DNA of 64,000 nt from Yuukianura sp. NJ FZ-2021 (lineage: Eukaryota): assembly GCA_046563655.1 (NCBI GenBank), contig CM102288.1:248001-312000 (forward strand), given 5' to 3'. Position numbers and translations under genes: made by a program. Below, one piece after another: positions 24,981 through 62,381 of this stretch; positions within the stretch are counted from its first letter, which is position 1, and every line of letters begins with the position of its first letter. The notes under the pieces are model-generated. The model saw nothing but the letters and a program-made list of their open reading frames with translations, did no database searches and was not told the DNA's origin.

Positions 24981-25069
24981 ACGATTATTGTTGATTTAAT
25001 ACGAAACATGTACTCAAAAAAATGTTAAGATTGCGTACAAAGGAATGAAGAGAGAAGTGTTACTTGTGA

Positions 25070-27804: not shown

Positions 27805-27993
27805 TTACGTTTTACATTTAAAAAAAAACGTATCTCATATGCGTTACTTACGTTTGTGGGTCAACGTCAATAGACAACAAGAGTAATATGTATGTACAAT
27901 TCGAAAATCGAAATTAAGTACTTTTAGATTAATTTAAGGTTGATGTTTGTTTACAAAACAAACCCCAAAAAAAAAGTAAACCTTTGTTGAATG

Positions 27994-28306
27994 CACAGGT
28001 GCTAATTGAGTGTAAAAAATTTTACCGCTCCGCTCCCTCGTCCGCATCGCTCCCGCTCCGCTCACAGCGGTCATAAAACTTTAACGACCGCCCGCTCCCG
28101 CTCACTCATGTGTTAACATAGGAGCGGGCGGAGCGAAGAGCGCCGCTCTTCATCAATTTTTGGCTTCGCTCCGCTCCCGCCCGCTCTTTCGCAAAATTTT
28201 TGTGGACCGCTCCGCTCCGCTCTTGGAGCGAAGAGCGGAGCGGTCACCGCTCTTCTAAAGAGCGATCGCTCTCAAAAGAGCGGCGCTCTCTCAATTAGCA
28301 CCAGTG
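27994..28306. mobile_element. 313-bp MITE with 17-bp TIRs and 8-bp TSD (P/hAT-type)
   Basis: TIRs CACAGGTGCTAATTGAG (27994-28010) and CTCAATTAGCACCAGTG (28290-28306), one mismatch. Direct repeat GTTGAATG at 27986-27993 and 28307-28314. GC-rich interior of CCGCTC/GAGCGG repeats. Confidence 0.9.
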
Positions 28307-29173
28307 GTTGAATGCAAAAAAAACTCTAGCTGTTTTTTTAGCTTTTTATTTCGCGCCATATTCAAATTCTGGAACGTTTACGTTTTAAAATGTCAACACT
28401 AAAAATGTTTAAACAAAAAAACCCGTTAAAATAATAAGTTATAATAATGCATATAAAATAATATATGAAAATAATTTTTAAGTAAATCACCACAAAAATC
28501 CACTTTTATTTATATTTTCGTCAGAATTCATAAACTAGACGAAATTCACAATGAAATTGAAGTAAAATTAATTTGCATATACTAAAACAATGTTCCAGCT
28601 GATTGGAACTTTACATTTGACTCCACCATAGAAAGCTACTCACCGTGAATTAAACAATTAGCAGATTAATTAACACATTTTATATAAATCAAAGTTACAC
28701 TATTTAATAAATGTGACTTCATCCAAAACTTATGTCCTTTTAGTCTTTGCCTTTCTTTTGCTTTTAGATTACAAAAGAATCACTTCCGATTTCTACAGTT
28801 CATTCAGTGTGTAAAATGTTCAAAAGTTACAATTGGACACATTACCACATGACCTGTGACCTCTTAAAAGTAATTTCTAAGATTGACATGACATTGCGTT
28901 AACTGTTACATTTTACATTGCACGATTAACTTGGGACAAGACGAATTGAAAATAAAAAGAACGATTAAGTGTCTTGTGTTTTTAATGATGGAGCAAATTG
29001 GAAGTTTTGCGGGACATTTCTAACTGCTTTCAAAAGTTTCGGTTTCTTTCCCACGTGAAAATAGATTGATTTGGCGAAAAGTTATAAATTTTGGGAGGAG
29101 GTGAGAATTTTTCAGTTTGCCGACATGTAGACTATTCTCTCCCGAAAAATTGCGAGTTTGTTGATGGAGATGT

Positions 29174-30412
29174 TTAGCGACGTCGCTTGCGACTGCTGGC
29201 GTCTTTGTCGGCCAAGAGGACGAGGATATGTTTGAAGATTGAAGCCAAGTCCATGAAGAGAGTGAGAGCATGCCAAACGAAGTCACGGTCTCCAATGCGA
29301 AACTTCTCCATGATTAGGTGAGTGTCGTACAGAATGAATGCACTCATCACACACAGTCCCAGCAACACTTGGATCTACATTGTTTAAAATTAAGGAAAAT
29401 TAACACAAATCTAAGCTGAGTAGGTTAAGAAGCTGTGAGTTGTCTTACGTAAGCAATTGACGCCGATCGGATGAAGATGTTCAAGATGGATGCCAAGATC
29501 ATTGTGCTGAGGATAGACATGAGCGGACCACCAAGTGCCAAATACTTTCCTTCTGGAGCAATCAAAGCGCTCACTGAGAAGCATGTGAAGATGACACAAG
29601 TGTAGAGCAGTGCTGAGATGACGATGGATGGATCCATGGCCCAAACGTATTCAATCAGTGGGCCGGTTGACAGTCCTGAAAAAGTCAATCGTTAGAAACT
29701 ATAACTACTACACTGAAATTGTTCCATTTGAAGAAAACGTTTTACCTGTACAGAGAGCCAGGCCGTTCAAGTACAGAAAACGTTTTCCATCCTCCTTTGC
29801 GTCTGAGTTGCGTGAAAAGGCCAAAGCCATTATGAATCCAAAGGAACCAAAAGCACTCAGCAATCCACCTTCCCAAAATCCTAAAAACGAACAAGAATTG
29901 TCAATTAATTTGAAGACGATGATTGTTGAATTCTGACATGACATTACCGTTCATGTGAATCATGGATCCGATGGCGGCAACAAGAGCTGCACTGGCAACT
30001 GAAGCGTACACATTACGCAAGTGGGACCGAATCGGCCCTTCCCTGAAACAAACCAAACATGTTAAGATTCTGTACGCGTCACATTGACATTCGCGAATCT
30101 CCCGGTGTCTGGTCCGGTTGCAATAAAAATGTTACTACATCAGGAAACTCATTGTACCAGTAGAAGATTAAGAGAGGAATATTTGCCTGATAAAACGTTA
30201 TGTTTTAAAGTTGAAAAGATTACACACTTCAAATTATACTGAAGTCGAATGACACAACAACTCACTTCAAGTTGAACTTTCAGCTAATAACCTGCTTGCT
30301 ACAACGCCAAACACCATTCGCATAAATGACGATAGTTTATGATTTATGTTCGTTTGTAAGTAACTTACAATTTGTTGTTCATCAAATTATTGAAGTTGGT
30401 CATGAACTCCAT
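29174..30412 (-). CDS. TMBIM6: Bax inhibitor-1
   Basis: PIRSHLRNVYASVA, GLSTGPLIEYV, IFTCFSVSAL and FILYDTHLIMEKFRIGDRDFVWHALTLFMDLASIFKHILVLLADK; multi-exon. Confidence 0.93.
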
Positions 30413-31210
30413 TTTGTTTCGGTTAAATGTTAAATCTGATTCTTTTGTCTCTTCTTGTTTGAATCGCTGTCACTGTTTCTCGTTTCAGCTGGCCTTCTTA
30501 AATCTTAAGTAAGGTTGTCCTTGTCGTTTCTACAACAAAATAGAACCATACATTCAATAGTTATAGTTAATTGAATAAATTGTTATTTGACCTTCGTCAA
30601 TTACTGTAGTTTTAATGCACTAGTTGCTTGCTAGAAACCAGATACTTCTGCTAAAAACAGAATGTGAAGGAAACCATATGTTTTGCTTACCTTTACTTTT
30701 CGGATTTAGAATGTAAGTCAGGTAATTGTAACTATTAATTGTAATGTAACAATTGAAATTTAGTTTATGACTTACGAGATGAAGTTGAATGTGAATGGAA
30801 TGAACGATAGACCGAGGGATACTAACCGAAATGTGATGTTGGTGGTTGACTGACGATGTGAAAAAGTCCACGTAGAATTGCAGTGGAAACGAAGGGTGAA
30901 AAAAAGAGACAGAAAGTGGGCGGGGTCGTCACCCACTTAACGTGACGCCATCAATCCACTCATCTCAAGTACCAAACAGTGTTTGGACAAATTCAGGAAT
31001 GTTCTGGAACTTAAATTACTAAACTTACACGTAAGTACTAAGCTAACGTAACTTTCCACTTTGAACAACTTTAATTAACTACTAACCAACTGATTTAGCA
31101 AAGTGGTTTGTTTGCAAGCTTGACCTTAAATTGGACAGCTGATGTTGCCGTTGTTCGATATTGGTCAAATGGAACGGAAATGATTTAATTACTTGGAATT
31201 TAGTAAACTG

Positions 31211-31919
31211 TTAATTGACATTTTGATTTAGTTGTGCTGGAGTTGCGGGATTGAGTACTTTGTCTCTGAATTGGAGGATGACACGGACCATGATCCAGTC
31301 ACCACTGGCCAGCATCACCCAGCTCAACCAGTCCGCCGCAAAGTTGTCTCCGAGGAATTTGAGCAGTGGAACTCCAGCAAGGGCACAGTAGAGTACTGGC
31401 ACTACGCCCAGCACAGTGTAGAAACGACTGTACGCCTTCAGCCAACGCTCACAAGCATCCTGCCGTTTCTAAAAAGCCCACTTTCTCTTGAACTTTGACC
31501 TGAATTTTTGGTCATTTATATAACTCCTAAGTTCCTTACCTTGTAAACACCCTCCCGGAGATGCAGTCCGTTTTTGACATTGAGGAACGCCATTCGGACT
31601 TAAGAAGACATAAAAAAAAACATGAATGTTATGAGAATGTTGAGAAAATAGAGCCGAGGTCAAAGGTCAACGAATTACAGAAACAGAGGAGACAAGCGGC
31701 AGTACTTGTCGCTGGACCACGCGGACCATCAATAAAGCACCAAAAGTTCAATCCCATTGCGGAAAGTAGCCGACCAAGTGTAAGAATCTTCAAAAAAGAA
31801 AGAACAGAAATGCTGTGAAATTTTTTTGAGCAGGAATTGGAAAACTGTGACAAACTTACGAAACTTAGCATAACCACACCCTTGGCTCGTTTCTCAAGAA
31901 CGTTCTGAACATCGACCAT
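31211..31919 (-). CDS. Small multi-pass membrane protein of unknown function
   Basis: ATG at 31919, four exons with GT-AG boundaries, several hydrophobic helices; last exon ...WLKAYSRFYTVLGVVPVLYCALAG...GDWIMVRVILQFRDK. Layout loosely resembles the 4-TM genes at 51-57 kb. Confidence 0.6.
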
Positions 31920-33014: not shown

Positions 33015-36000
33015 CCCAAAGGGGTACCTTGTCGTGGGTACCCATTCCGCGGTAGCTTTAAGCGGTTAGCACTGTCTCCGCGGTTCTAAACTAAAAAAAA
33101 ACGAGTTTTTTTTTTAGAAAAACCCAATGATGGCCACGCCCTTCAAAATAAAATTTTTTAATTTTTACACAAGGTACCCCAAAGGGGTACCTTGACGTGG
33201 GTACCCATTCCGCAGTAGGTTTAAGCGGTTAGCACTGTCTCCGCGGTTGTAAACTCCAAAAAAACAAGTAATTTTTTTAGGAAAACCCAATGGTGGCCAC
33301 GCACTTCAAAACAAAATTTTCTAATTTTTAAGAAAGGTACCCCAAAGGGGTACCTTGTCGTGGGTACCCATTCCGCGGTAGGTTTAAACGGGTGACAATT
33401 TCTCCGCGGTTATAAACTCCAAAAAAACATGATGTTTTTTGAGAAAAACCCAATGGTGGCCACGCCCTTCTAGACAAAATTTTCAAATTTTTAACAAAGG
33501 TACCCCAAAGGGGTACCTTGTCGTGGGTACCCATTCCGCGGTAGCTTTAAGCGGTTAGCACTGTCTCCGCGGTTCTAAACTCAAAAAAAAACAAGTTTTT
33601 TTTTGAGAAAAACCCAATGATGGCCACGCCCTTCAAAATAAAATTTTTTAATTTTTACACAAGGTACCCCAAAGGGGTACCTTGTCGTGGGTACCCATTC
33701 CGCGGTAGGTTTAAGCGGTTAACAATTTCTCCGCGGTTATAAACTCCAAAAAAACATGATGGTTTTTGAGAAAAACCAAGAACTGGCCACGCCCTTCAAA
33801 ACAAAATTTTCAAATTTTTACACAAGGTACCCCAAAGGGGTACCTTGTCGTGGGTACCCATTCCGGGTAGCTTTAAGCGGTTAGCACTGTCTCCGCGGTT
33901 CTAAACTAAAAAAAAAACAAGTTTTTTTTTGAGAAAAACCCAATGATGGCCACGCCCTTCAAAATAAAATTTTTTAATTTTTACACAAGGTACCCCAAAG
34001 GGGTACCTTGTCGTGGGTACCCATTCCGCGGTAGGTTTAAGCGGTTAACAATTTCTCCGCGGTTATAAACTCCAAAAAAACATGATGGTTTTTGAGAAAA
34101 ACCCAATGGTGGCCACGCCCTTCTTGACAAAATTTTCAAATTTTTAACAAAGGTACCCCAATGGGGTACCTTGACGTGGGTACCCATTCCGCGGTAGGTT
34201 TAAGCGGTTAGCACTGTCTCCGCGGTTGTAAACTCCAAAAAAAACAAGTTTTTTTTTGAGAAAAACCCAATGGTGGCCACGCACTTCAAAACAAAATTTT
34301 CTAATTTTTAAGAAAGGTACCCCAAAGGGGTACCTTGTCGTGGGTACCCATTCCGCGGTAGGTTTAAACGGGTGACAATTTCTCCGCGGTTATAAACTCC
34401 AAAAAAACATGATGGTTTTTGAGAAAAACCAAGAACTGGCCACGCCCTTCAAAACAAAATTTTCAAATTTTTACACAAGGTACCCCAAAGGGGTACCTTG
34501 TCGTGGGTACCCATTCCGCGGTAGCTTTAAGCGGTTAGCACTGTCTCCGCGGTTCTAAACTAAAAAAAAACAAGTTTTTTTTTGAGAAAAACCCAATGAT
34601 GGCCACGCCCTTCAAAATAAAATTTTTTAATTTTTACACAAGGTACCCCAAAGGGGTACCTTGTCGTGGTACCCATTCCGCGGTAGGTTTAAGCGGTTAA
34701 CAATTTCTCCGCGGTTATAAACTCCAAAAAAACATGATGGTTTTTGAGAAAAACCCAATGGTGGCCACGCCCTTCTAGACAAAATTTTCAAATTTTTACA
34801 CAAGGTACCCCAAAGGGGTACCTTGTCGTGGGTACCCATTCCGCGGTAGGTTTAAGCGGTTAACAATTTCTCCGCGGTTATAAACTCCAAAAAAACATGA
34901 TGGTTTTTGAGAAAAACCCAATGGTGGCCACGCCCTTCTAGACAAAATTTTCAAATTTTTAACAAAGGTACCCCAAAGGGGTACCTTGTCGTGGGTAGCC
35001 ATTCCGCGGTAGCTTTAAGCGGTTAACACTGTCTCCGCGGTTCTAAACTCAAAAAAAAACAAGTTTTTTTTTGAGAAAAACCCAATGATGGCCACGCACT
35101 TCAAAACAAAATTTTCAAATTTTTACACAAGGTACCCCTTTGGGGTACCTTGTGTAAAAATTTGAAAATTTTGTTTTGAAGGGCGTGGCCAGTTCTTGGT
35201 TTTTCTCAAAAACCATCATGTTTTTTTTTGAGTTTAGAACCGCGGAGACAGTGTTAACCGCTTAAAGCTACCGCGGAATGGCTACCCACGACAAGGTACC
35301 CCTTTGGGGTACCTTTGTTAAAAATTTGAAAATTTTGTCTAGAAGGGCGTGGCCACCATTGGGTTTTTCTCAAAAAACATCATGTTTTTTTGGAGTTTAT
35401 AACCGCGGAGAAATTGTCACCCGTTTAAACCTACCGCGGAATGGGTACCCACGACAAGGTACCCCTTTGGGGTACCTTTCTTAAAAATTAGAAAATTTTG
35501 TTTTGAAGTGCGTGGCCACCATTGGGTTTTTCTCAAAAAAAAACTTGTTTTTTTTTGAGTTTAGAACCGCGGAGACAGTGCTAACCGCTTAAAGCTACCG
35601 CGGAATGGGTACCCACGACAAGGTACCCCTTTGGGGTACCTTTGTTAAAAATTTGAAAATTTTGTCTAGAAGGGCGTGGCCACCATTGGGTTTTTCTCAA
35701 AAACCATCATGTTTTTTTGGAGTTTATAACCGCGGAGAAATTGTTAACCGCTTAAACCTACCGCGGAATGGGTACCCACGACAAGGTACCCCTTTGGGGT
35801 ACCTTGTGTAAAAATTAAAAAATTTTATTTTGAAGGGCGTGGCCAAGGTTTCTATAGCAACGAAATGCTTTAAGAGGTTTGGCAATAAGTCCTGTTTACA
35901 AAAAAATTCGCTCCAAACAATTTTTTACTCTGATTTTCCTCCAATCCCATTTGATTGCATATAAATCATTACCATAGGAAAGCTCGGTGAGCCAAGTTTT

Positions 36001-37017
36001 GCTAATTTTTAAACAAAATTTAAAACGCTTGAGTTATTGCCTAACCTATTGAAGAAAAAACTATTTTCTTGTTTACAAACCTTGGGCGTGGCCATCATTG
36101 GGTTTTTCTCAAAAAAAAACTTGTTTTCTTTGAGTTTAGAACCGCGGAGACAGTGCTAACCGCTTAAAACTACCGCGGAATGGGTACCCACGACAAGGTA
36201 CCCCTTTGGGGTACCTTGTGTAAAAATTTGAAAATTTTGTTTTGAAGGGCGTGGCCAGTTCTTGGTTTTTCTCAAAAACCATCATGTTTTTTTGGAGTTT
36301 ATAACCGCGGAGAAAATGTTAACCGCTTAAACCTACCGCGGAATGGGTACCACGTCAAGGTACCCCTTTGGGGTACCTTGTGTAAAAATTGGAAAATTTT
36401 GTCTAGAAGGGCGTGGCCACCATTGGGTTTTTCTCAAAAAAAAACTTGTTTTTTTTTAGTTTAGAACCGCGGAGACAGTGCTAACCGCTTAAAGCTACCG
36501 CGGAATGGCTACCCACGACAAGGTACCCCTTTGGGGTACCTTTGTTAAAAATTTGAAAATTTTGTCTAGAAGGGCGTGGCCACCATTGGGTTTTTCTCAA
36601 AAACCATCATGTTTTTTTGGAGTTTATAACCGCGGAGAAATTGTTAACCGCTTAAACTTACCGCGGAATGGGTACCCACGACAAGGTACCCCTTTGGGGT
36701 ACCTTGTGTAAAAATTAAAAAATTTTATTTTGAAGGGCGTGGCCATCATTGGGTTTTTCTCAAAAAAAAACTTGTTTTTTTTTGAGTTTAGAACCGCGGA
36801 GACAGTGCTAACCGCTTAAACCTACCGCGGAATGGATACCCACGACAAGGTACCCCTTTGGGGTACCTTTCTTAAAAATTAGAAAATTTTGTTTTGAAGT
36901 GCGTGGCCACCATTGGGTTTTTCTCAAAAAAAAACTTGTTTTTTTTTTGAGTTTAGAACCGCGCAGACAGTGCTAACCGCTTAAAGCTACCGCGGAATGG
37001 GTACCCACGACAAGGTA
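33015..37017. repeat. ~163-bp tandem satellite arranged as an inverted (foldback) array
   Basis: About 13 monomers in one orientation (33015-35138) and about 10 inverted (35142-37017). Each monomer contains the hairpin AAGGTACCCC-AAA-GGGGTACCTT, two CCGCGG sites and A/T tracts. Confidence 0.97.
35844..36084. mobile_element. 241-bp MITE inserted in the satellite, 8-bp TSD (hAT/P-type)
   Basis: Ends CAAGGTTT...AAACCTTG. GGCGTGGC is duplicated at 35836-35843 and 36085-36092. Removing the insert and one copy restores the monomer sequence GAAGGGCGTGGCCATC. Confidence 0.9.
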
Positions 37018-37050
37018 AGATAAGCGATAAACTATGGCACTAAATTCCAG

Positions 37051-37482
37051 GTTGTGGAGAGAAGCAAAACGTTCCGAGCGGGGAGCCGGGACAGTCGAAT
37101 CCGAACTTATTTTTATGGACGGATCGGTGGGCAAGTTCTGCATCCACATTCGTTCCAAGTGAAACTTTCCGAAGTAATCTACAAAATCGGAAGTCCAGCT
37201 GTTCCATCATCTTGTCTCCCACTGGGCATGAAAGTGGACGAATCCCGAACAAAGTTAGTCCCAGTAACACCGACGACTCAGCAGTTGCTGCATAAACTGC
37301 TCGCAATAAGTTTCGCTTCTGCTGCTGACGAAGACGTAATCCGGAAGAATGTTGCTGGTTACGTCTGTGTGACGGACATTGACGTGGAAAAGGGACGCAT
37401 GACTGTTCTATCGCCGTCACCCGGACCACTCCCCAAGTTACTTCTTCTCCTTTCGGACATTCAGTTTATGGATTCCCAATAA
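37051..37482 (+). CDS. CLP1: CLP1 polyribonucleotide 5'-kinase, terminal exon only (upstream exons not found in window)
   Basis: After acceptor TTCCAG: VVERSKTFRAGSRDSRIRTYFYG...YKIGSPAVPSSCLPLGM...NVAGYVCVTDIDVEKGRMTVLSPSPGPLPK...DIQFMDSQ*, matching the CLP1 C-terminal domain. Confidence 0.88.
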   Translation, partial: VVERSKTFRAGSRDSRIRTYFYGRIGGQVLHPHSFQVKLSEVIYKIGSPAVPSSCLPLGMKVDESRTKLVPVTPTTQQLLHKLLAISFASAADEDVIRKNVAGYVCVTDIDVEKGRMTVLSPSPGPLPKLLLLLSDIQFMDSQ

Positions 37483-39615: not shown

Positions 39616-42600
39616 ATGAGCAGTAGTGGACCATGGACTGCCCGGAGGCGAGGTCATGACCTCCACTTAACATTATTTTCCTTAACGTGTTGTGCAGTGA
39701 CAGTTTTATTGTTCCTGGAACCATCAAATGCCCATGTTGGCCTCACCTTCCCCCCTGCTAGAAAGTACGACTTGGACTTTTTAGATAATGTTCGAACAAA
39801 ACCACCTTGTGGAATGCCTAAAGGTAAGAGAACATCCACTTTTCAAAATTTAGACGATTTATGAACCTTATTCGAAAAATTCTTTTGTTCAAAGTGACAT
39901 AATTTAGGTAAACTCGGATTTTTAATGTTGAAATTTCAGTAAGAAAAATGAGTTCTGTGGAAGAAGGAAAAAAGGGAGCAGCATTGTACAGAAACTTGAA
40001 AATCAGGATTTTTTGGCACACAAAATCATTGTGAATTGTCAAAAATTTACACCCAAATGACAGTTGCTTGCACCAGTGGTTTTTGCTACTAAAAAGTAAA
40101 GAATCTGATCATTTTAAGGCCAATTTGTAGTCTGGGTCTCCAAAAAGTTCACATTTTATTTGGGTTTTAACCTTACGTTTGACTTCTTTTTTACTCCAAA
40201 TTCTCACATTTTTTTCATCTTTTTAAAACACGTTTCATTGAGAAATTACGATGATCTCATTTTCAGTTGGAAAGAATTAAATTGTAATGCTCACAAAACC
40301 TTCTTTTTATTTTCTACAAAATTGTAGAAAATGGAAAGATTTTTTGAAAAAGAACATTTTGGTAGTTGACAATCATGTTTGTCATTTGACCATTGTAGCA
40401 TTACATAACGGGAATGTAGCAGATGACATTTAAATGTACAAGTAAATAAAAAAAAAAGTAAAGAAAGATCTGTTAAGTTATTCAGGTCATGACAGACAGT
40501 AAGTAGTTCCAAATCGTGTTTTTTGGACACACTTTTTCTACATTTTTGTGTATGACATTTTGCCTTTGTTACAATGTTATACCTGGCAAAGTCTATTTTT
40601 CATTTTACTTTTATTAAAAATTTGAAAAATATTTGCACTATTATTGTTAAAATATTTTTTTATTTATTCACTACTGTCAGATTTTGTTACCTTTGAATTG
40701 ATTTTTGGCTGTGAAGAAACTGATGTGGGATTTTTCTTTTCTGTGGATTTCAATTTTGATTTTGTAGGTTTTAGGAACTGAAATGTTCAAATACTGTTTG
40801 ATTTTGTTGAGCTTTTAAATGAGACATGAATATCGTGGGCTGAAGAAATGTAAATTGTAGAGCAGTAAATGTAAATTTGATCTCTTTATTCCGAGAGTTC
40901 ACCAGATTTGGTGTACAGATTGCCGTTAAAATTGAGAAATTCCGTAAAATTGTGCCCTTTTAACTCACTTTTTATGTCAAAATGCCAAAATTGTGGTAAA
41001 AACTTTATGTTTGAACTTCAATTTCAGGAGTAATTACTTTGATCAATAATTTTGTGCATAAACGTGGTAATTACTTTTGAATTCCAAAAAGGAATTACAA
41101 CAACGTTGTTTCTCACGCATTTAATTCAAAATGAACTCCGATTTAAATTCATGGAAATGAGCAAGAATTTTTTTGGAGCTGTTCGCTATAGCCTGGTGCC
41201 TAAATGTGTCGTCTGACACGCAGCTCAGCCATCTCGAACGCCGTAAATCTCTAAAGCTAAAAAAATTTAGTTTCGTTTACAATGTTGACTGTGTCCTGTG
41301 TCTTTCCTTTACCACAATTCCTTTGTATCAGAATTCCCAAATTACAAAAAATTACAAACTAAAAAACTCGTAAATTTTTTGTGTAAAAAGCATAAAAATA
41401 AAGTTTTAAAGTTAAGCCGACACTCTCGTCTCGGCGTTTACGTTTTGCTAACAACGCCTCCACGCATTAACCGCAACTTACAATTTAATATTCTCACGGA
41501 CCATTTCCCCCTCTCATTGCACAATTACGATTTTGATTTCCTTGATTGCATTTTTGGAAATGTCAAACAATGGGTTGAGTTACGTAAAAGTGGAGTTAAA
41601 AGTTATCCTTGGATTTGGCATTACTCTCATTATGGATCCACTGATGGCAGATTGGCACTTACCATTCATTTTGTTCAATTGTGACCCCCAAGGCCAGGGG
41701 TGATTGTAACACCACAAATTCACAAAAAAAGTAAAATTGGATGTTATGGTACAACTTGAAAGAAAAAATTTAGTACCTACTAACTCTGGGAATTTGAAAA
41801 TGTTCAATCGTTGTTAAATAGTGGGGGCGGTGGTGGATGGTGATGATGTGCACCAAGGCTTAGGATTTGAAATGATTCATGTCATGTAGGAAGTAACTCT
41901 CTTAAGGTCGTGAGATAAAGAAACACTTAATGTGTTGATTTTTTACTAAAAGAACATTTAAAGAAAGAGGATTCAAGATTTTGATTACTTTTTTGCCCGA
42001 ATTTGAGATCCTATCATGATTTTTTCACTTTTTAGTTATTACTGTATTTCCTCGCATATAACATTCACTCGCGTATAATTCGAACCTGCATTTTTTTTCG
42101 ATGAATTTTTTTCGACGTCAATGTCTCACAATTTATGTGTTTAATTTCTGTTTTATTGAAAGTGAAAAGTAAAGAGTTTAAAGCATTAACTGGCGAATCT
42201 GCTTTCTCTTGTGGTCTACAAAGATAGTGAAGAAGGGTGTTAATGAGGAATGTCAACCTTATCCCCCACGTTAACGTGTTAATGTGCCATAAAAGTCTAC
42301 TTCTTTACGTTTTAATTGGTAATGACACACATATTCTCAAGATCATCTTCACACTTGGAAATTGCAATTGCAACTACTACCTACCTTGGGCTGGAATTTA
42401 CATTTCTAAACAAGACAAAGAAATCAATTCCATCAACTAAAAATCTAAATATTTAGAATTTCTTGTGTCAATTTTTAGTAACTCACTATTTTCCTTTTTC
42501 CTTTTTTATTTATTTAACCCAGACAGCACGAGAAGGAGATTTGGTGATAATTAATTTTTAAAACAGTTTGAGAGTTTTTGAAAAAAACGAAATGAATTAA

Positions 42601-45600
42601 TGTTTGGAGTTTGTTTTGGCGTAATGACGTTGGTTGAGATGACTAATTGAGATATAATACGGTAGTGATGGATGGTTGATAAAGTTAAGTTGAGTTAAAT
42701 TTAAGTTAAGGATAAGGTGGAAATAAGTAGTAGTGTGATTGTTTGGTGGTTGGTGTTGCGTGACCTTAAGGGAAACAATGCGTTGTTGAAGGGTGGAGCA
42801 AAGTAACTGATCTGGATCCTCACATTAGAAATTGAAACTAACAAGGAAAGTTAAGTTGGAAACTGTTCACTGCGGGGGTGATGACCTTGGTGTAGTTCAA
42901 GGCATGCATAATTATTCTAATGTATTTATTAATTTTTAATATATTTTTATAGGTTCGATCAAGACGAGTCTTGTGTCGGGATCCCTCGTGAATGTCACTT
43001 GGCATCTCTCGTACCCTCATCAGGTGAGGAACATGACAGCTTAATTTTAAATGTTAATTAACTTTTGTTAATTGAAGATTGCTTAAATGTTATTCCAGGG
43101 TGGGTATCGCCTGGAGCTGATGGATGCTCAGGAAAAAGAGATTCTGGACTTGACTCCAAGGAGGGGCAGTGACGACTACGTTCGTGGAGATCCAACGTAA
43201 GAATCAAAACTCATTTTCAAAATTATTAAAAACGAAAACAAAATTTCTCTAATTAACATAATACGCACTCACTTCACGTTCACCGCTAAAAGTTTCAGTA
43301 GGATTTTTAGTTTCTAATTCGGCGAAAAATCTGTGTAACTATCAGAAAATAGCAGAATGCACTATTATGGATTTTTTCATAATTTTTTGACCAGTTGTCA
43401 AACTCTTTTAAAATTCAGTTGAAATTCGGTGTTTTCGGTTCTGGAGAAATCCAGTTCCGAATAATTTCAGTTTTGTTTGAATTAATTGCGATGTGGCAGT
43501 TTTGTTGTTGATTGAAGCACTGTCGACTCATTTGCCGTGATGACTATTTGCGGAAAAACTAAAATTGATGATGTGTTGTGGGTAGGGCTAAGGATTGCCC
43601 ATAGATTGAACAAAATGATTGATGTACTTGGTGGAGGGAGTCTTGTGATTTAAGTTTGCACATTTCATCCATAGCCCAACACAGGAATTTCATCCTGTAG
43701 GAACAACAGGAATTTAATCCTGCACTACAGGAATTCTGATAGTTTGTAATTCGGTGAATAATTGGAAATGATGATGATTTGGCGGTTTATTATTGTCATT
43801 GGGAGAATTGTGAGTGAAGATGAATGGATTTTGGTTGAGTGTGAGTAGGAAGTGTAATTGAATTGGGGATTTAAATAGGTTTTTACTGTTAGGTCCAAAG
43901 TGACAAGAATAAATATTAAGCAGAAGCATTTGAGCACCTTCACTCCAATGCTGCTGTGAGTTGCAGAAGAAGTGAATCTTAATTTAGAGGAAGGTGCAGA
44001 GTAGTTTAAGTTTGGATCGATCGATGACCTCCTTACCTCAATTGACCCAAACTTTACTTCTATTCTTGTTTCTAAAAAGAAAAGAGAGAATTAGGTTATG
44101 CTAAAAGCAAATCCTTTTGTTAGCGCCGATTCCCCAATAATTGACAACTTTGACACCAATTGGGAATTTTCGGAACTTGACTTTTCAGTTAGCTAAAAAC
44201 ATGACCAATTAGATACATAATCCAGCTTTTTTCGGTCTCTCTTGTATTTTCCAGAAAATAATTTATAATTTAAATATAATGATATAGTATGAAATTAAAT
44301 ATTAATTATATTATATTATTGCATTATTGCATGAATTAGTCGACGTTTTGCATCTGCTTTTGTTTTGGTGTTTGGGAATTGTGAAATTCCCAACAAACGA
44401 AGAATTGCATAATTCGAGTGAATTTGAGATTTGAGAGGAAGGAGAGGTGTGAACTGTGAGTTGAAATTCTGTAAAGTGGAGAGGATGCGACAGAGGTTGC
44501 TCTGAAAAGTGTATAATTACATGTTAATTTAATTGAGATTACGCAACTAACGTTTCTTTAAAGTAAAGAAAGTCCCCTTTAATTACTGCCTTTTAGGCCG
44601 AACTGTATCACATTTAAAGGGCCCCACGTCCATCATCATTCATCTTCTCCCGTCCTTCACAACTCACATGTACTTAACTTCACAAATCACAGTCATTCAT
44701 CATCTTAGTCCTTTAAAATGTTTCATTTTGTGCAAATGTGCAAAATGATCTTTAATCATTTAAATGGGTGTACAATTATTTTAATTTGACGGTTTTGACA
44801 AAGTCACGCTTTTGTCACTCTGCTTTATGGGAAATATTTAAGTCCGGAATTGGCTACACGGGGACCAATTTTAAGTTTAAAGTTTAGGAAGTTGCGAATT
44901 GGGATGCAACTTTAAAAAGTGTAACAATGAGGGAACAATGCGTGTGACGTGAGATATGGTGTAACCTGTAACAATGAGACTTTGTGTGTACATGTCCCCC
45001 CATTGTTTCCAAATCCAGATCACCTGTTGTTATTGTTGTTTTTTATTAAAATAAGCTCAGATTGTTAAAGTTGATGTGGATTGTTACAGTTAATTATGTT
45101 TTATTGACATGATATGGTTAAGCGACATTTGTGAAAGCATAATGAGGCGTAGCATACTAATGTCAAGTCAATTTGGCATGGTCGTAAGTGGTTGCAGTAG
45201 GTAGACACAAGGACCTTGGCCCATTGTTCAACATTTTTCACTAAAAAGTTGACAAGTTTAGTAGATGTGAGAAATTACTGTTTCTGTTCCTTATTTTTGG
45301 GTTTTACTGTAAAAGTGTGTCGTGGGAAGTTGGGTGTGATTCGTTATTTGGATGAGCTCACATTTTGTCTTTAGATTTAGACTGAATTTGAAAAAATGGG
45401 CCAACGACCGCGTGTATTTGCTTTTCCAAAAAATCAGAATTTATAAGTACATGGTGCATGTTGGAGATTTCCAGGTCATCGATTCTGGATTTTCTGGACA
45501 GGAATTGTGAAAGTGACTTTTGTTAAAAAGTAGGTGAAGAAGATGAATAATTGAATCCAATTTGGTTTGTTTTATGTTTTAGGGCGCAGTCTTTCCAGGT

Positions 45601-48600
45601 CAAGCTGCCACCGAGTTTCACTTGTGAAGATTGTACAATTCGGTTGCTAAGAGAAGCTTCTGAGTGGTCAGGAAAATATCGGTTTTGGTCATGCGCAGAC
45701 GTCAGTATCGTTCAACTGGAGGCGTACAAAGAATCCTGTTCTGGACATGGGCGACCGATAGCTGGAAGATGCATTTGTAACAAAGGTGAGCACGATTTTT
45801 TCAAAAACGTTAGTTTTTTTGAATTTTTTAGTAAAATTTTGATTCCTTAGGATTCTGGGGTCATCGCTGTCAGTATGAAGATGAATGTGAGACGCAGAAG
45901 GAGTGTGGGAATGGAAACGGCCAGTGCATTGACCTCGGTGGAACGGCGCTCCCCAGAAAACAGTGTTTTTGCAATCCTGGATTTCACGGTGAAAAGTGTT
46001 TGAAACGCAACTTGGTTCGATTGGCGGATGGAAAGAAACCGCTAGATTTGACTCAACACAAGAAACGAATTTTGTCTGAACGCATGACACTTTACTACAA
46101 AGTAGTTCCAGCTAAAAACGCTGAAAATAATGAAATGGAGTTTGTGCTGGAGATTGAAGGGACTTCGTACGGAGCCCTTGGGTGGCGTCCTGCCAGTTTC
46201 ACCAAAACTTGTCAACGGTGGCCGTTCATTGCCGGTTCAACACCAGATCGACAGGGCAAGGGAATCGCTGTCAGTGGATCGTAAGTCAAATCAGAAAAAC
46301 GTTTGAACTCATATTAAATTTCTAGGTTTTTGAAATTTGGAATTTTCCTTATATTAGTTTACTCTTTTAAAAAAATACTTAAAAAAATTGTTACTATTTT
46401 TTCTCACAGGGATAAAGTTTCGGTAGCTGCTGAACCGGAACCGAAACCGGAAGGAGAACCGGAACCGTCTGCTGAAGGAGAACCTTCGGCTGAAGGTGAA
46501 CCGTCCGGAGAACCATCGGCTTCGAAAGAAGTTCACTCGAAGCGCGGTCAAGCAGAAGCCGAACCAGCATCAGAACCGGAACCGAAACCAGAGGGCCAAA
46601 GCGAACCTGAACCGGCGTCTGGTAAGCCAATTGCCAATTTTTTTTAAAATTTCCAAATGGTGAACTTTTTATTTATTGTTAGAACCAGAACCGTCAACTT
46701 CATCTGCCCCAAAAACAAACGCGGGCAAGCTGAAATCCAAGATCCGTCCGAAACCGAAGTTGCTAAGCGACGGAGAAGACGTTAACCTCGAATCGTCTGC
46801 TATCACAGTCACTCGTGCCTCTACCAGGAAACAGCGATCGCCTGAACCAGAAGCCGAATCGGAACCACAATCCGAACCAGAACCCAATTCCGAACCAGAA
46901 CCAGAAGGAGAGCCAAGTTCTGCCGCTGAACCAGAAGCTGTACCAGAAGGCGAGCCAGAACCAGAAAGTCCTTCTGCTGGACACGATTACAATCCAAGCG
47001 AACTTCAAGCTCATGAGGTTCGTTTTTTACAAAATCACATACATTTTTGTCATAAACTTAAACTTTGAGCTATGAAAAATTATGCTTGACCTTCGTATTT
47101 TCTTTTTGCAGTGGTCACCACGCAATGACTTCCACGCAATGGATTGTATCGAGTAAGTCACGAAACAAACCGTTTAGCAGCTTTCACTTACTGTTTTTTA
47201 AAAGCGGAAGTTGTAAAAATGAAGTTTTATGATTTTGACTTTTTATGAAATCAGTCTCGTGATGGGGGCAGCTAGAGGTCAACTGTCAAGAATCCTGGAT
47301 TACTACACACGAGACAGATCTACTCCTAGACTGGACTCTTTTTGGGGTGGGAAAGACGATATAACGTCTGCCACTGGATGGGAAAACGACAAGAAAACGA
47401 CTTTGATCTTTCGACGTCGTGTCAGATCCACTGACGGTTCGGATCATTCTTTGGATTCGGGTGAAATGCATGTCATTTGGGCCAGAGGTCAAGAACAAGG
47501 AGATTATGTCCACAAACCACAATCCGGTAAGAGTCTAGAAATCAGGAGTCACAATGATTCTTGACTCACGCGAGTCAAAAGTGACTCATCATTGGATTTG
47601 TTTTTAGGTCTTGAGAAAGAAGGCCATATGCCTTCAGTTCCGAAGTTTTATGCTCCAGACGAAATTAAGTACCATGGGCATGGAGCTCAGAGAGGGAAAA
47701 CGCGTATTAACTTTTTTGAAAAAGCGGCGTCCAGTGCTAATCAAGGGAAGAACGAAGATAAATGTGAAGATGGTTGGAGTCATCCGCCGGGATGTTCAAA
47801 CGAAGATCCAAAAATGCCTTGCAGTTACACTGCTCGGTGGCGATACATTCCCAATATCGACTCTGTCCAGTTTACAATTCAGAGCAGGAAGGCCGAACGT
47901 TGGACTGGAATTGGTTTTGGTCAGTGTCATTTTTCAAAAAAAGTCAACAAATTTTGAACTTTTTAAAATTTTTAATTTTTATTAACTTTTTGAATTGTGA
48001 TTTAGGTGACAGTCCGACCATGAGAAATTCTGATGCTGTTTTGGGCTACGTGACGCCCGGTGGCGGCTCGTTTGTGTGGGACGCTTACATGGCCTCTTAC
48101 ATCATCCCGTCTCTAGATGCTGTCCAGGTACTAGTTACCGAGTTACCAAAAATGTTGAAATTCAAAATTTGGAAATAAAATTTTGAATTTTTTTTTAGAA
48201 TTTGAAGAACGAAAGTGGAAGTTACACTGATGGTGTCGTCACAATTTCGTTCATCCGTCCCGTTGAGTCGACGGATCCCGAAGACGTGTCGTTGGACAAA
48301 TGTCGGTTTTTCATTTTTCCAATCGAAGGAGGAAACTACAACGCTGTTTCAAAGAAAATTGGAAAACACATTCAGACTCCTTTGACTTCGGCTGAGCGTG
48401 TTTGTATTCCCAGAACATGTCGTACCGTCAAACCGAAAAAACCGGACGAACTCCGGTACGCTTTTGACATCAAGTTGGTTGGTGGTTTTGCCAATAGTTG
48501 GCAACCACCGAAACCCGGCACGAGAGAATTTGATGACCTGAACAATCGGCTTCGGCGTGACCTTGAAGCACAACTCAAAAGTATCGACGGATTTAGAAGT

Positions 48601-49955
48601 TTGGGGCTCACTGATATCAAAAAGTAACAAATTCTGAAACTCAAATGAAAAGTTTAGTTTAAAAAACAGTTTTTTGACAGTTTTTGATTTTTTTTAGAGT
48701 TGGATCGGAAGCTGTTGCCAGTTTGGAACTGATGGTAAATCCCAACAGTGAACTTGCTAAGAAGGATCGAGTGAGCAGAGCCCTTAAGGAAACAATTTCC
48801 AGCGGAAAAGCTGGACAACTCCAAGTGGATCCAACGTTTTTGGCTCTAAGTGCTCCAGAACTGAGGAAATCCACGAATGACGAAGAAGGAGAAAATGAAG
48901 TTGTGTTTCCAGCGCTGATTGGAACGAGACTTTGGATTGTCATTGGTTGTGTTGCAGCACTCATTGTACTAGCACTTGTCCAAGCTATTCTCACAATCTA
49001 CAAATCATCCGGAAAAACATCTTCACACAAAGTAAGTTTTGAAATTTCAATAAGTTTTTGAAATTTTGAAAAATCTAACTCTGTTTACTTTCTCTCTGCT
49101 TTCTCTTCAAAATCTTCAATTTCTATCTTCTGCTGCCCTGCTGAAGGTGACTCCAAACGGAGTGGAGTTGAGCCCAAAAGCAGCCTTTCCGAAAACTCCA
49201 TAAAATTTTCAAAAAAAAAAGTTTTCTGAAATACACTCTTTTCGAAAATTTTAAGAATCCTTTTTGAACTACGCGATGTGTGTAAGCTCTCAAATTTTCT
49301 GAACACACGCACCTTACACGTAGTAGTCGCTTTTGCACAAAATCATTGAAATCTGGTTTTGCTTATAATTTTAAAATTTCGTTTTTAAAAGGACTTTTTT
49401 CAAATGACTTCAAAAATGCAACTTTTCTACTTTTTCCTATGAATTTTGGAGTTGACTAAATTTGTATCTGTTTTCCAGGATTCCCCGTCGAGTGGTTCTG
49501 GAATGGCCTGGAGAGACTACTCGGAGACGAACTTTGCATATGACGGTTATGACGAAAAGGGTTACCATGGGAACGGAAACACAATGCCACTCAGATCCAC
49601 TCCAACGCATTACAACGGACACTCTCAGTATCACTACAATGGTGGTGGTGGGGCACAGTCCCACATGACCAACATGTCACTGCCCAGGCCTCAGAGTCAG
49701 TCCAGAACCAATGGTGGGGCAGCTCATCACCCCCATCGTCATAGCAACAGTCACTTGGTCACCTCTCCAAGTACATCCACTTCCTACAACAATGGACACA
49801 GCTCAAATTCACACGGTGGGGCCGGTGGAGGATATGGTGGTGGGACAGGGGCGGGGCTGAGTCAAAACAATCCAGACTTTTACTTTATGCCGTCCCAACG
49901 GAAGTACTCGGGTGAAGTCGTGCGTGTATATGTTGATCATAACAACAAACGATGA
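39616..49955 (+). CDS. nahoda: Type-I membrane protein: signal peptide, His-brace LPMO-like domain, EGF repeats, two DOMON domains, SEA-like domain, TM helix, cytoplasmic tail (nahoda-like)
   Basis: Exons joined in frame by GT-AG phase: 39616-39823, 42953-43023, 43099-43196, 45583 onward. Motifs CSGHGRPIAGRCIC, YGALGWRP...AMDCIDLVMG, RWTGIGFG..PTMRNSDAVLG and TM LWIVIGCVAALIVLALVQAILTIY. Gene name is recalled similarity to Drosophila nahoda, not a search result. Confidence 0.85.
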
Positions 49956-57952: not shown

Positions 57953-59414
57953 TCAAAATTTTTGGTTTTGTTTGTAGCCAACAATGATACTGATGCTGTT
58001 GTCGAGAACGAAGCTGAACATGTTAGGGATTGTGAGTGAGTTTACGACATACAGACCACCAATGTCCCACTCCAGAGGACGCATAGAGCGCAGAAGCATT
58101 CGTTCCCTTTTGACCTTGACACTTTGGCCGTGACCTAGGTTTGTTTCAGCACCCTTCAACACTTGCCTTGTGACCTCTGACATTCCACTCCCAACTTGCA
58201 TGCAGTAGATCATTGCAGTTACAGTGATGACAGATACAAGTATGACAAGAAGGAATGTCGTTAGGCCCAGTTCTGCATTGAACAGAACGAGAACAGACAG
58301 CGACATGATCATCAGAAACATGGCCATTCCTGTGATTATTGGTAGTGTCATGCGCAGCACTTCTGTGGCGACGCAATGAAACACTTCATGACCTCTGTAC
58401 AGCATCAGAGCGTCGTCTACAGTTAGCACCCCTGAGGAAATTGCGCTAAACACACAAAAAAAATACCAAAAATATCAGATTTCTATAAAATTACTTGATT
58501 TGGCTAGAGATATTTCGACGGTGGAATTTGACTGGTTGGCTCCAGCCCATCTGAAAGCTGATTGGTCAGTTGTAGACCAATGAGAATCAACCTTTGAGTA
58601 GAACACTATGTACATACCTAAGGGTGGTTTTCATGGCTCGAGTAACAAAGTCGACGTGAATGGCAATTTCAAAGATGCTGCCCATAATGAAGAAAACGTC
58701 ACTGGAGTAGTAGAGAGAGCAGGCACAGGCGACCATCGTGTCCAAGCAGATGTCGCCAGTTGCGAGTCCAGACATGACGGCCATTTTGAAATAGCACTGG
58801 GCAAGGAGGTACACAGGACCAGTCGTAACTCCCACCACAACACCAAAACTCAACATTATCCTAACGAATGTAACAAATTCCTTGTCTCGAATTTCATAAA
58901 TTTTCTTCTCTTTGAAAAATTTAGCTGCAATGAAATCCAAAATTTACAAACTTTTAAGTCGAAAAAAGTCCACTTGAAGTTCGAAATTTGAGAAAAAAGT
59001 CATAGTTTGAAACTAACCTTGGGCGTGGCTCATGGAGTACAACGAATTGAAGTAAGAACCAACTCGAAATGGTTGCAAAAAGAAATGCAAATGTGAAATA
59101 AGAGATTGAAAAATAAGTGCAACGAGATACATCACTTGCAAACCAACTTGCGGACTCTGAACATTGTCCCGTTGGATTTGACCTCTCCAGAATATGAGTA
59201 GACCAAGTCGTAAGAGAAGGTGAGCTGTGCAAATGACCTTGTAGAAGGTCAAATGACTTACAAAAGGTCGCTGACCTTGGTGACCTCTGCAGTACACTAC
59301 AGTCCACCGTGTGTTGTCATCAGGAGACACTTCAAATTTCCATGGAAAGCATCCCACAAGGTAACCGAAGTTTATAAACTTGGACAAAAGGGCCATAACC
59401 CGCTCTTCCAACAT
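57953..59414 (-). CDS. Divergent gustatory-receptor-like 7TM chemoreceptor
   Basis: Three exons with many TM helices; N-terminal GYLVGCFPW; C-terminal RSMRPLEWDIGGLYVVNSLTIPNMFSFVLDNSISIIVGY resembles the GR/OR TM7 region. Confidence 0.6.
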
Positions 59415-59793
59415 TTTGTTCACTTCTGCCAAATTTTACCTAGAAAATTACGTATTCTTTGTTTCTCTTGTGGTTGACTTTGTGATTTGTTTATTATTCT
59501 TTTGACTTTGAGCAAATAAAATGCTCATAAAATTGAACCTTTTGTGTGTTTTCACCATTTTGTGAATATTTCTTGCAATTGATAGTCCATTTAGTGGCAA
59601 AGGCATAATCACGAAATGCAGGTACGAGAGACGTTCGTGCTTATTTTTGAAATTTTAAAACTATGTCCTATGTCAAACAAATTTCCCAAATGGCAGTAGC
59701 AGGAGTGGTTGGTTCCAAATAATTCAAATAAAACAACTAAATTTTACTCAATTGCAGTTAAAGTTAAGATAAATTTAAGTTTACTGTCCGCCT

Positions 59794-61598
59794 TCACTCA
59801 AGATCCTCTTCGTTGAGTTCATGCAGAAGATGATTGACTCTGCTTTGTGGCCTCGCACTTGCCTCCCCCTGGCGGCGACCTCGCAACTTATTCGTAGTTG
59901 GACGTCCGCTTTGTCTCCCCGACTCCACTCCAATTCTTCCATTCGAGCTGTAGCGGGGATCCGGCCGAAGTGGCTTCGTCAGAGAGTCTCCGCCATCGGC
60001 TGGTCCACCACCTTTGACCTTGGCTGACCCCGTCAACATCGGTCGGCTCACCATTTGAACGTAGGGGTCATCCAGCACATCTTCATCTCCAGTACTCAGA
60101 CTCTGCATTAAGTTCCGCTCATTTTGGGACGGAATTGGATGAGTCGATCCACGAACACGCGGAGCTTCCGGCTCCTTGTTTCCATACGGACCGTTTCTCC
60201 TGAAACAGAATTTGAAGGTTTTTAAACTTTCAAAATTTTGAAATCAAAAGTGGTATAGTCAGTTTTTTCAAAATTTTGATTTACATTGACAACATGATGT
60301 CGACATCGTCGTCCATGTCGGATCCAAGGTCAGAGTTGTCGCCGTCAATAAGAACCATGTCAGTTTCTGACTCTGACTCCTCCTCCTCCAGTCCTCCATA
60401 CATGTTCACCCTCTGCGCACCGCTTTTACCACGACTTGACCTCCCGCGCATGCCCTGATCTGCGCCGACTCCTTTGACCTTGACCTTATCCTCACGACCA
60501 AGCTGTTCCAAACTCATTTCCAGCGATTCCTCTTCCTCCGATCCCGACAGCTCATCCAATTGCGACGAATAGGCATTAGTTGAGCCCAGTTTGGCCGATC
60601 GCTGACTCTCCTGCACTCCCATCTCTTCCATTTGATGCTGAAGATGAGCCAGAATTCGAAATCTTTCGACATACTGAGTGTACAAATCCTCGAGTTCCCT
60701 TGTGACCTTGTCAAGGTCATCCATGTACGCTGGTCTCACTTTGGCCATGGTCTGCAACCGCTGCTGACTCCTCTCCAGCTCCTGACGCTTCTTTTCAATC
60801 TTGAGGTCAAGTGACCCCTGTGTCTGCACAGCCGAATCTACTGAGCTGCGCAGTCGCTTCTCTTCTTTTTTCATGGCCTCAGTTGCTTTGGCCAAAATGG
60901 AGTCGTAGTCACGCAGTTCAAAAGGTTTGGCCAACAACGTGTCTCTGGCTGAACCAATCCAGGCTTCTTTTGTGACGAGGTCAAAGAAAGTGACGCCTTT
61001 GTCCGTGAGAGAGGCAGAGAGGTCACGAGTGACCTTGACCTTGTGTAGAGATGGCTGAAGTTGGTAGAACTGGGTGAGGTGGTCCTTTTGTCCAGTTTGT
61101 CCAGTGTCACTGTCTTTGTCCAGTTCCTTCTTTGCAGTGGAGTAGAATTGAATCAACTTGGCTATTTCTTTGACGGCGTACCCGTCTGCCTGGTACAATC
61201 TTCTCCCGTTTAGCCGCACTCCAGTTTTCCTAAGCTGAATCATCAATTTGATCATCATTTTACTCATCATCATCATACTCATACTCATCATCACTTACAA
61301 TGTTCTGGACAAAGTATCTGATGAAGTTCACCCGACCAGCCTCCGTGCCAAGGTCACTCGGTGTGTCCGAGATGGAGGTGGGGTCATGTCGTTTTAAAAA
61401 CCACCGAAGTATGTCTCCTAGCAACTGGAAGTTTGGCGTACGAAAACTCTCCAAGGAAATTAGCCTAGGATAGCCCATTCGACGCAGCACATCAGTCACA
61501 TCTAAGTCAAAAAATAATTAATTGGTAATACATGGTTTATTTAGTTTTAAGAAAAACTTGAAACTTATTTAATTACTTTTGATTTCTCGATAAGACAT
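59794..61598 (-). CDS. CLUAP1: Clusterin-associated protein 1 (IFT38)
   Basis: MSYREIK, LRRMGYPRLISLESFRTPNFQL, RLYQADGYAVKE, KIEKKRQELERSQQRLQTMAKVRPAYMD and an acidic tail; last exon splices in frame to the stop at 59794. Confidence 0.95.
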
Positions 61599-61784
61599 TC
61601 TGCTTTCACTGCTACAGACTGCTCAAATCCAAAACACAAAAGCAGCAGGGTTCGCACTGACTTGACTCAGAATTTTCACTATTTTTCCGTTTTTTTTTTT
61701 TAGTTTTGGAACACCGATTTCAAAAAATGGAATTTTTAAATTAGTGTTTTGAAGTAAGCCGGAGTTTGTTGAATATTAGACACT

Positions 61785-61798
61785 GTTGCCTTGGTAAC
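61785..61798. promoter_or_regulatory. RFX X-box upstream of the ciliary gene CLUAP1
   Basis: GTTGCCTTGGTAAC fits the X-box consensus GTTNCC-NN-GGNAAC, ~190 bp upstream of the CLUAP1 ATG. Confidence 0.75.
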
Positions 61799-61967
61799 GA
61801 TAAACTCACAACAAGAGGAATTGGCAATCGATGCGGATGAAAAATGAAGAAGTTGAAAATATTCTGAAAGGATTTTGACAGCTTTTTATTAATTTTAATT
61901 TTAGTATCTTATTATTATTATTTTAGTATTTTATTTACTTTTATATTTTTTGTAATATTTTATTGAA

Positions 61968-62381
61968 TCATAGTTTTGCGTTGGCCACTGCCAGATCCAC
62001 CATTGGTTTCATTTCGTTGACCTTCGTCGTGAGTCTGCGCATTGCCTCCACTTTTGTAATGTTCCCAAGTGCTTCCCACGTTTGCTTTTCACGCGTGTTC
62101 ATGTCCTCTTTTTCCGCTTGCGGAGCAGCTCGAAATGCTCCGTGAGCAGAGTGCTTCAAAAGGGCTTTGAACTGTCGCTTCTGCTCCTCAGACAACTTGT
62201 ACGGATGATCTGTCAAAAAATTTCCAAATTTTATTTTGCCACTTTACTCAAAATTTGAACAATTTGGTTTTCAAAGGCATCTTTGACTTTTGAAAAGTCA
62301 GTTACCTGCTGCTGCTTTGAGGTTTTCCAGGAAAACGACAGCTTCTTCATAGTTTCGTTGCTGCTCTTGAAGTGTCCCCAT
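61968..62381 (-). CDS. Divergent acyl-CoA-binding protein (ACBP)-like
   Basis: Two exons: MGTLQEQQRNYEEAVVFLENL / LSEEQKRQFKALLKHSAHG...REKQTWEALGNITKVEAMRRL; ACBP spacing with substituted residues. Confidence 0.7.

Follow-up and report, generated by a model that had tools for sequence, protein, structure and literature searches.

From where do animal enzymes of the lytic polysaccharide monooxygenase (LPMO) type draw their electrons, and to what do the DOMON hemes of CYBDOM proteins deliver theirs? The physiological donor of the former and the acceptor of the latter become one joined question in a polypeptide encoded by a 64,000-nucleotide stretch of Yuukianura sp. NJ FZ-2021 DNA (assembly GCA_046563655.1, contig CM102288.1, positions 248,001 to 312,000; hereafter the window, in whose numbering all positions are given). 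A gene on its plus strand (39616-49955) encodes a protein that, by its sequence, is the orthologue of Drosophila nahoda, and in which a domain with a predicted copper-binding His brace precedes two DOMON domains of the heme-ligand type. We propose, and on balance favour, that it belongs to a family of His-brace copper enzymes that is pan-eukaryotic, has so far not been described and has an electrical link to the cytosol: electrons would pass from ascorbate through cytochrome b561 and the DOMON hemes to copper, within one chain in some green algae and with a partner b561 in animals.

The gene has 14 exons (exons 1-5: 39616-39823, 42953-43023, 43099-43196, 45583-45785 and 45851-46280; exons 6-10: 46410-46621, 46683-47017, 47112-47152, 47255-47526 and 47608-47919; exons 11-14: 48006-48127, 48199-48623, 48698-49031 and 49479-49955), and all of its introns are GT-AG by donor and acceptor tests on the window DNA. 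Splicing, read from the sequence and from homology, leaves an open frame of 1179 amino acids (aa) closed by a TGA stop at 49953-49955. These exons were also covered by tblastn with three arthropod orthologues, and five junctions (residues 94, 126, 194, 533 and 728) lie inside ungapped conserved blocks of the alignments; the gene model is therefore not a product of chance. A Pfam match to Toxin_GhoT_OrtT on exon 2 (E 0.05) was set aside as a chance one. The order of the encoded parts is signal peptide, His-first domain, two EGF repeats, two DOMONs, a SEA-like domain, one transmembrane (TM) helix and a tail, so that an earlier note on this DNA, which ended the gene near 48630, had missed its last part: the SEA-like domain, the helix and a 170-aa tail reach to 49955. 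Identity to the best 25 relatives is 35-39% over ~1200 columns, several of the insect ones being named nahoda, and in a FastTree tree of 39 sequences, effectively unrooted and weak at its deep nodes, the window protein joins Orchesella sequences (support 1.0) within an arthropod clade (0.95), which makes a springtail the probable source.

The first 39 residues (39616..39732, plus strand, exon 1) form a predicted signal peptide, with a hydrophobic core (8-residue Kyte-Doolittle value 2.96) and, ahead of His40, with Ser and Ala in positions -3 and -1, respectively. As the earlier note had claimed, splicing of exons 1-4 places this His directly after Ser-Asn-Ala, with its codon at 39733-39735. 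Among 261 sequences having both an initial Met and the His motif (from 337, near-identical isoforms included), Gly, Ala, Ser or Cys stands at -1 in 254 and a hydrophobic core is present in 254. By the -3/-1 rule and the core, His40 is thus predicted to be position 1 of the mature protein.

The domain that begins with this His spans residues 40-168 (39733..45709, plus strand); its 129 aa match the ~130 aa foreseen, and it is indeed split over four exons (39733-39823, 42953-43023, 43099-43196 and 45583-45709). Its fold was judged on AlphaFold2 models of two homologues, which share 66% and 55% identity with it in this domain (predicted local distance difference test (pLDDT) 85.5 and 92.6). In a Foldseek search with a homologue model, the rows listed down to E 1.2e-3 were all LPMO or LPMO-like chains. 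A wide structure search placed the AA15 enzyme TdAA15A on top both for the first proxy (Z 11.9, root-mean-square deviation 3.4, 132 residues aligned) and for the compact one (Z 14.1, 2.3 and 128, respectively), followed by AA10, AA11, AA16, AA13 and LaX325 at Z 10-12 (for the compact one, LaX325 11.4 and an AA16 LPMO-like protein 11.8). The best structure matches outside DOMON were all His-brace proteins of the LPMO fold, and 5MSZ (TdAA15A) was the sole LPMO match of the family profile in the PDB (E 3e-4). These models agree with the copper His-brace type of fold originally suggested, and the head is predicted to be an LPMO-like beta-sandwich. The compact homologue was modelled with pLDDT 92.6 and a predicted template modelling score of 0.86; the latter suggests that head, EGF pair and DOMON1 form a rigid unit, and is silent on the copper-heme distance.

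The residues expected of a copper site are in place. His40 aligns to position 1 of LPMO chains in the model and is His in 114 of 124 homologues (9 gaps, 1 other residue). A profile search over 1.84 billion representatives returned 1423 proteins at E<=0.001, and the best 150 of these 1423 gave 158 domain rows, for which counts are given per row with a residue; there His1 is found in 104/104, with 54 gaps, although the local alignment may hide a mismatch at the end. The second brace His, His92 of Tyr90-Pro-His92 (43012..43020, plus strand), corresponds to TdAA15A His91 in a HMMER alignment to 5MSZ; its codon lies, as noted before, at 43018-43020, and it is conserved in 120/124 homologues (1 gap, 3 others) and in 122/133 rows. 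In the segment Glu153...Tyr158-x-Phe160-W-S-Cys163 (45662..45694, plus strand), Phe160 (45683-45685) takes the place of the axial aromatic, TdAA15A Tyr184, and Tyr158 stands opposite TdAA15A Glu182; Phe160 is kept in 104/112 rows, Tyr158 in 95/110 and Glu153 in 105/114. The earlier note had put the whole of C..CTIRL...RFWSCADV at 45683-45700, which holds for FWSCAD, whereas C..CTIRL starts at 45623. In TdAA15A itself, His1, His91 and Tyr184 are described as copper-site residues (PMC5823890). Asp54 (39775..39777, plus strand) is an invariant acid (106/106 rows) and a candidate second-sphere or fourth-ligand residue, and Tyr90, which falls at TdAA15A Ala89, is Tyr in 121/124 homologues and Tyr in 101 or Phe in 11 of 130 rows. 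His87, the other His of WHLSYPH, was considered as a third ligand and rejected, because it is not invariant (86/124 rows). The pair of brace His and the axial aromatic persist from sponges to insects and in algae. Sequence and models together make a His brace in the head very likely, and we are highly confident that copper would bind there.

Which known family comes closest? With AA15 LPMOs (TdAA15A, 5MSZ), animal and secreted proteins, the head shares the best fold match, His1, the x-P-H-x-G context of the second His, the axial aromatic, a C-x-x-C strand and a C-A-D end. Its surroundings nevertheless differ from AA15, since the domain is smaller (129 aa versus ~195), has 4 Cys (65, 140, 143 and 163) versus 10 (PMC5823890) and carries Tyr at the positions of Ala89 and Glu182; in addition, it is always followed by EGF-EGF-DOMON and not by a carbohydrate-binding module (CBM) or GH18/19, and it is membrane anchored. 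Membership of AA15 was ruled out on size, Cys number and the two Tyr. Pfam LPMO_10 (PF03067) gave 19-27 bits with homologues, against a gathering cut-off of 23, over profile positions 82-183 only, and no match with the window exons alone; some fragments of the family already bear the label 'Chitin-binding type-4 domain' in UniRef. The closest profile is SCE4755 (NCBIfam NF043005), an uncharacterised bacterial family resembling polysaccharide monooxygenases, which matched 10/10 homologues across the greater part of its length (best E 3.5e-13) and lies near in the Atlas, where its score of 0.86-0.87 is a lead only. At 25-50 bits all ten homologues stay below its cut-off of 75, and membership was rejected.

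The likeness to X325 and Bim1 (LaX325, 6IBH) consists in a small LPMO-fold domain, a His brace, a surface anchor and weak Pfam BIM1-like matches, whereas the window protein adds heme-type DOMONs and keeps the axial Phe. A rival function is copper capture and reduction: a Bim1-like brace would bind Cu(II), the hemes would reduce it and Cu(I) would go to a Ctr-type importer, so that the protein would both trap copper and act as a cupric reductase at the cell surface. The weak BIM1-like matches and the Z of 11.4 with LaX325 fit this idea; Asp54 might supply the fourth copper ligand, as happens in X325, TM or glycosylphosphatidylinositol (GPI)-like anchors occur in 32/51 long representatives, the plant protein HYP1 reduces Cu(II) (PMC10784544), and the distribution of the family follows no single polysaccharide. 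AA15, however, fits better than X325 (Z 14.1 versus 11.4) and the axial aromatic of LPMOs is retained; the Asp of Bim1 is reported to lie on a Gly-rich loop, in a protein without redox activity (PMC7529816), and the BIM1-like matches are below cut-off save, narrowly, in homologues P0226, P0300 and P0206. We consider copper capture unlikely as the function of the protein.

Both DOMON domains are of the type whose Met and His would ligate heme, in line with the earlier note, which had seen a Met and a late His in each. DOMON1 (residues ~262-661, 46054..47720; Pfam DOMON E 3.7e-11 on exon 9) has Met529 (47139-47141) and His646 (47673-47675), and DOMON2 (residues ~676-842, 47763..48420; Pfam pieces) has Met733 (48020-48022) and His825 (48367-48369), all on the plus strand. 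They are conserved in 114/124, 114/124, 111/124 and 108/124 homologues, respectively, and for the DOMON2 pair all other entries are gaps. According to the rule given for heme-binding DOMONs, Met and His are the ligands, and the DOMON of DBH is without heme (PMC10691727); the DOMON2 Met stands opposite a Leu of this non-heme domain. DOMON1 is interrupted by a Glu/Pro-rich insertion of ~205 aa just upstream of its Met (~46219-47126). In the compact homologue, P0194, DOMON1 is modelled as a single domain similar to the DBH DOMON (Z 12.3) and to the heme-b cytochrome domains of pyranose dehydrogenase, ethylbenzene dehydrogenase and cellobiose dehydrogenase (CDH) at Z 10.6-11.4 (CDH, 1D7C, 11.0). 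Heme binding by the DOMONs is, on these ligand residues, a prediction that we make with considerable confidence.

Insertions of very different size are accommodated in the loop that precedes the DOMON1 Met (window protein, P0108, P0119, P0208, P0226): its length ranges from 24 to 737 aa in 144 homologues, it is Glu/Pro-rich in arthropods, and in an annelid and in molluscs whole extra DOMONs are nested there within DOMON1. A furin-type site occurs in the insertion of 103/144 homologues; the full motif is absent from the window protein, and cleavage is therefore not claimed. Some homologues have 7-8 DOMONs, mostly with Met and His (7 in P0213, 8 in P0218 from Haliotis); in P0218 they alternate with 7 SEA domains and all have Met and His, possibly a long multi-heme chain.

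What would reduce these hemes? The locus was initially described as a 'self-contained' redox system, and this did not hold: the CDH heme is fed by a flavin domain, whereas the window chain has one TM helix and, by Pfam on 13 of 14 exons, neither a flavin domain nor b561. Tblastn of algal b561 parts against the 64-kb window gave nothing below E 0.5, and no redox partner was found among 26 window frames scanned. The window protein, as predicted, is a relay with a putative copper site that needs an external donor. In 2 of 45 homologues, by contrast, Pfam Cytochrom_B561 scored above cut-off at the C-terminal end (30.2 and 33.7 bits versus 23). These proteins, from Bryopsis (P0247) and Mesostigma viride (P0252/P0315), consist of head, EGF pair, 2-3 DOMONs and b561; their b561 domains have four His in common, both brace His are kept and the DOMONs have Met and His. 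The two did not group together in the FastTree tree. As independent gene models in distant green lineages they are unlikely to be an artefact of prediction. Phmmer of P0315 against the PDB returned low-complexity matches only, and an Atlas search with the Mesostigma protein no usable match. The algal proteins are, by their predicted domains, natural fusions showing what the electron source can be, one that the animal protein lacks. Of all the evidence, the fusion points most strongly to DOMON hemes that work for the copper head. We found no report of such a fusion of b561 to a His-brace/DOMON chain in the literature searched, which covered few subscription journals and not CAZy.

Two known systems offer precedents. 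The plant CYBDOM protein HYP1 gives ascorbate-dependent trans-membrane currents; with ascorbate of the cytosol as donor, it delivers electrons to both ferric and cupric acceptors, and it reduces Cu(II) (PMC10784544). The heme b of CDH reduces LPMO copper (PMC13353379). With CYBDOM proteins (plant HYP1/CRR, insect CG8399, human FRRS1/SDR2) the window protein shares the Met/His DOMON heme relay, and its Bryopsis and Mesostigma homologues are DOMON-b561 chains; the known CYBDOM proteins, however, are without a copper head (they have a reeler domain in animals). With one TM helix and no b561 the window protein is itself outside this class; P0247 and P0252 do carry b561 in the same chain. The CDH cytochrome domain with its fungal LPMO likewise sets a DOMON-type Met/His heme b beside a His-brace copper, but as two secreted proteins with a flavin domain as source, here replaced by one anchored chain without flavin. 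In its working, the window protein would resemble a CDH-cytochrome/LPMO pair, or a CYBDOM protein with a copper head.

Taken together, the best overall explanation, which we hold tentatively, is a type I membrane protein in which a copper brace, a heme relay and a b561 donor lead to oxidation of matrix glycans. One copper would sit in an LPMO-type brace between the mature N-terminal His and His92, and would receive single electrons from two b-hemes, one in each DOMON, held via Met and His. Electrons from cytosolic ascorbate would cross the membrane through a cytochrome b561. In some algae this b561 is part of the chain, whereas in animals it would be a second protein, such as a CYBDOM of the CG8399/FRRS1 type, or its place would be taken by an extracellular reductant. 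From the donor, electrons would thus reach the heme of DOMON2/DOMON1 and then the brace, where Cu(II) becomes Cu(I), and last O2 or H2O2, with which the reduced copper would oxidise an extracellular-matrix glycan beside the cell, chitin being the first candidate in arthropods and other glycans elsewhere. Heme-to-copper electron transfer seems to us probable; the weakest step is the last one, and on glycan oxidation as the end reaction we lean slightly to the side of doubt.

Several points weigh against this explanation. The family is present in Rhodelphis, Pyramimonas, Mesostigma and echinoderms, whose surfaces are not known to consist mainly of crystalline chitin or cellulose. The b561 fusion was seen in 2 proteins only and is listed for none of 120 animal matches. 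Pfam found a CBM or hydrolase domain in none of 45 homologues, which differs from AA15 (PMC5823890). Bim1 is reported to have the fold and the brace and yet not to be redox active (PMC7529816), and fly nahoda is reported as a marker of secondary cells of the accessory gland, no obvious cuticle site (PMC10627254, bioRxiv 2021.06.13.448152). Moreover, Tyr replaces the small Ala89, and the second-sphere position two residues before the axial aromatic is also Tyr in the window protein; a Gln or Glu is there, at one of two backbone positions, in >96% of AA9/10/11 (PMC10472438). As Glu60 does in SmAA10A (PMC10472438), Asp54 or Glu153 may fill this role from another backbone position.

The altered second sphere and the lack of CBM partners would also suit a surface oxidase, a functional analogue of NOX/DUOX that would have no polymer as substrate: its copper would make H2O2 or superoxide from O2, for use in signalling or in cross-linking of the matrix. 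LPMOs without substrate reduce O2 (table in PMC10952591), the AA16 LPMO-like protein matched at Z 11.8, and a steady supply of electrons via b561 fits an oxidase. Glu/Phe-type sites, however, are reported with low oxidase rates (PMC10472438), and the surface motifs around the brace are strongly conserved, which suggests a specific partner or substrate. We regard the oxidase as improbable, and retain glycan oxidation as the tentative end reaction.

Two EGF-like repeats (residues 178-244, 45737..46002) score below the Pfam cut-off on single exons and above it in homologues. A SEA-like domain (residues ~853-961, 48451..48851) is recognised by matches of the family profile to the SEA structures 8VIS and 2E7V; Pfam SEA is above cut-off in 5/45 homologues, and the window exons themselves have no such match. 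A single TM helix follows (residues ~986-1011, 48924..49001; hydropathy up to 2.9) and then a cytoplasmic tail of 170 aa (49002..49955, end of exon 13 and exon 14), all on the plus strand; the conserved F-Y-F-M-P-S-Q-R near its end occurs in 74/343 proteins, many of the others being fragments or tail-less. Among representatives of at least 400 aa, the start of DOMON1 follows the head in 51/51, the EGF pair is present in 50/51, a further DOMON part in 49/51 and a TM or GPI-like anchor in 32/51. Pfam on 45 new representatives returned EGF, DOMON, SEA, TIL and repeats. The EGF, SEA-like and mucin-like parts, the helix and the conserved tail motif could also belong to a receptor, sensor or adhesion protein, whose metal and heme sites would sense redox state, copper or a ligand while the tail signals, or whose domains would be independent, with no electron transfer; divergent nematode and tardigrade paralogues that lose second-sphere residues fit this too. 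But many homologues have a GPI-like end or no tail, and the b561 fusion and the multiplication of hemes point to electron flow. This reading appears distinctly improbable to us.

How widespread is the family? A search with exon 4 gave 8 matches, and the head domain of one of these, P0008, used as query, gave 120 long proteins, many named nahoda, from insects, crustaceans, chelicerates, a millipede, an annelid, molluscs, a tunicate, a hemichordate and a sea cucumber. Look-up of 30 of the best 150 profile matches added animal members from sponges, nematodes, tardigrades, a priapulid, a nematomorph and echinoderms, and non-animal ones from Bryopsis, Mesostigma, Pyramimonas, Chara, Rhodelphis and Prymnesium. 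No vertebrate name was among the named matches, absence not having been specifically tested, and bacterial relatives were seen here only via NCBIfam and the Atlas. P0113 from Orchesella and P0253, P0270 and P0274 from nematodes and tardigrades are one-DOMON paralogues with both brace His kept and Tyr90, Glu153 or Tyr158 altered.

The earlier note knew of no such function for nahoda-like proteins. As to function this agrees with our literature search (few subscription journals covered, no CAZy), in which we found no functional study of nahoda and met the gene only in expression lists. The domain pairing, on the other hand, is not new: LPMO_10, DOMON and EGF are mentioned together in passing in one paper (PMC6950343), and in a preprint the LPMO candidates left unassigned include DOMON and BIM1-like domains. 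If the proposal is true, this is a new LPMO-like family with a built-in relay, and it answers where animal LPMO-type copper gets its electrons. Because donor and acceptor meet in one chain, a construct of 400 aa (head, EGF pair, DOMON1) opens heme-to-copper transfer to direct test, as oocytes with the Mesostigma or Bryopsis protein do for the whole trans-membrane path. For a fly gene that is conserved but unstudied, the family further offers a concrete biochemical hypothesis, together with a candidate copper site whose second sphere is unusually rich in Tyr.

Elsewhere in the window, an array of a 163-bp unit (327-bp dimer) in ~23 copies and three blocks (33015-37017) lies directly before an exon encoding a Clp1 C-terminal domain (37024-37479). 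The genes found nearby, at 11995-31500 and 61263-62243, are of ordinary kinds: anoctamin, EF-1 beta/delta, ATP synthase f, OPA3, a GT2 glycosyltransferase, Bax inhibitor-1, Cluap1 and an ACBP-like protein. On the minus strand, two long hydrophobic open frames at 58590-59435, which have no Pfam match, may, as a guess, encode a chemoreceptor-like membrane protein.

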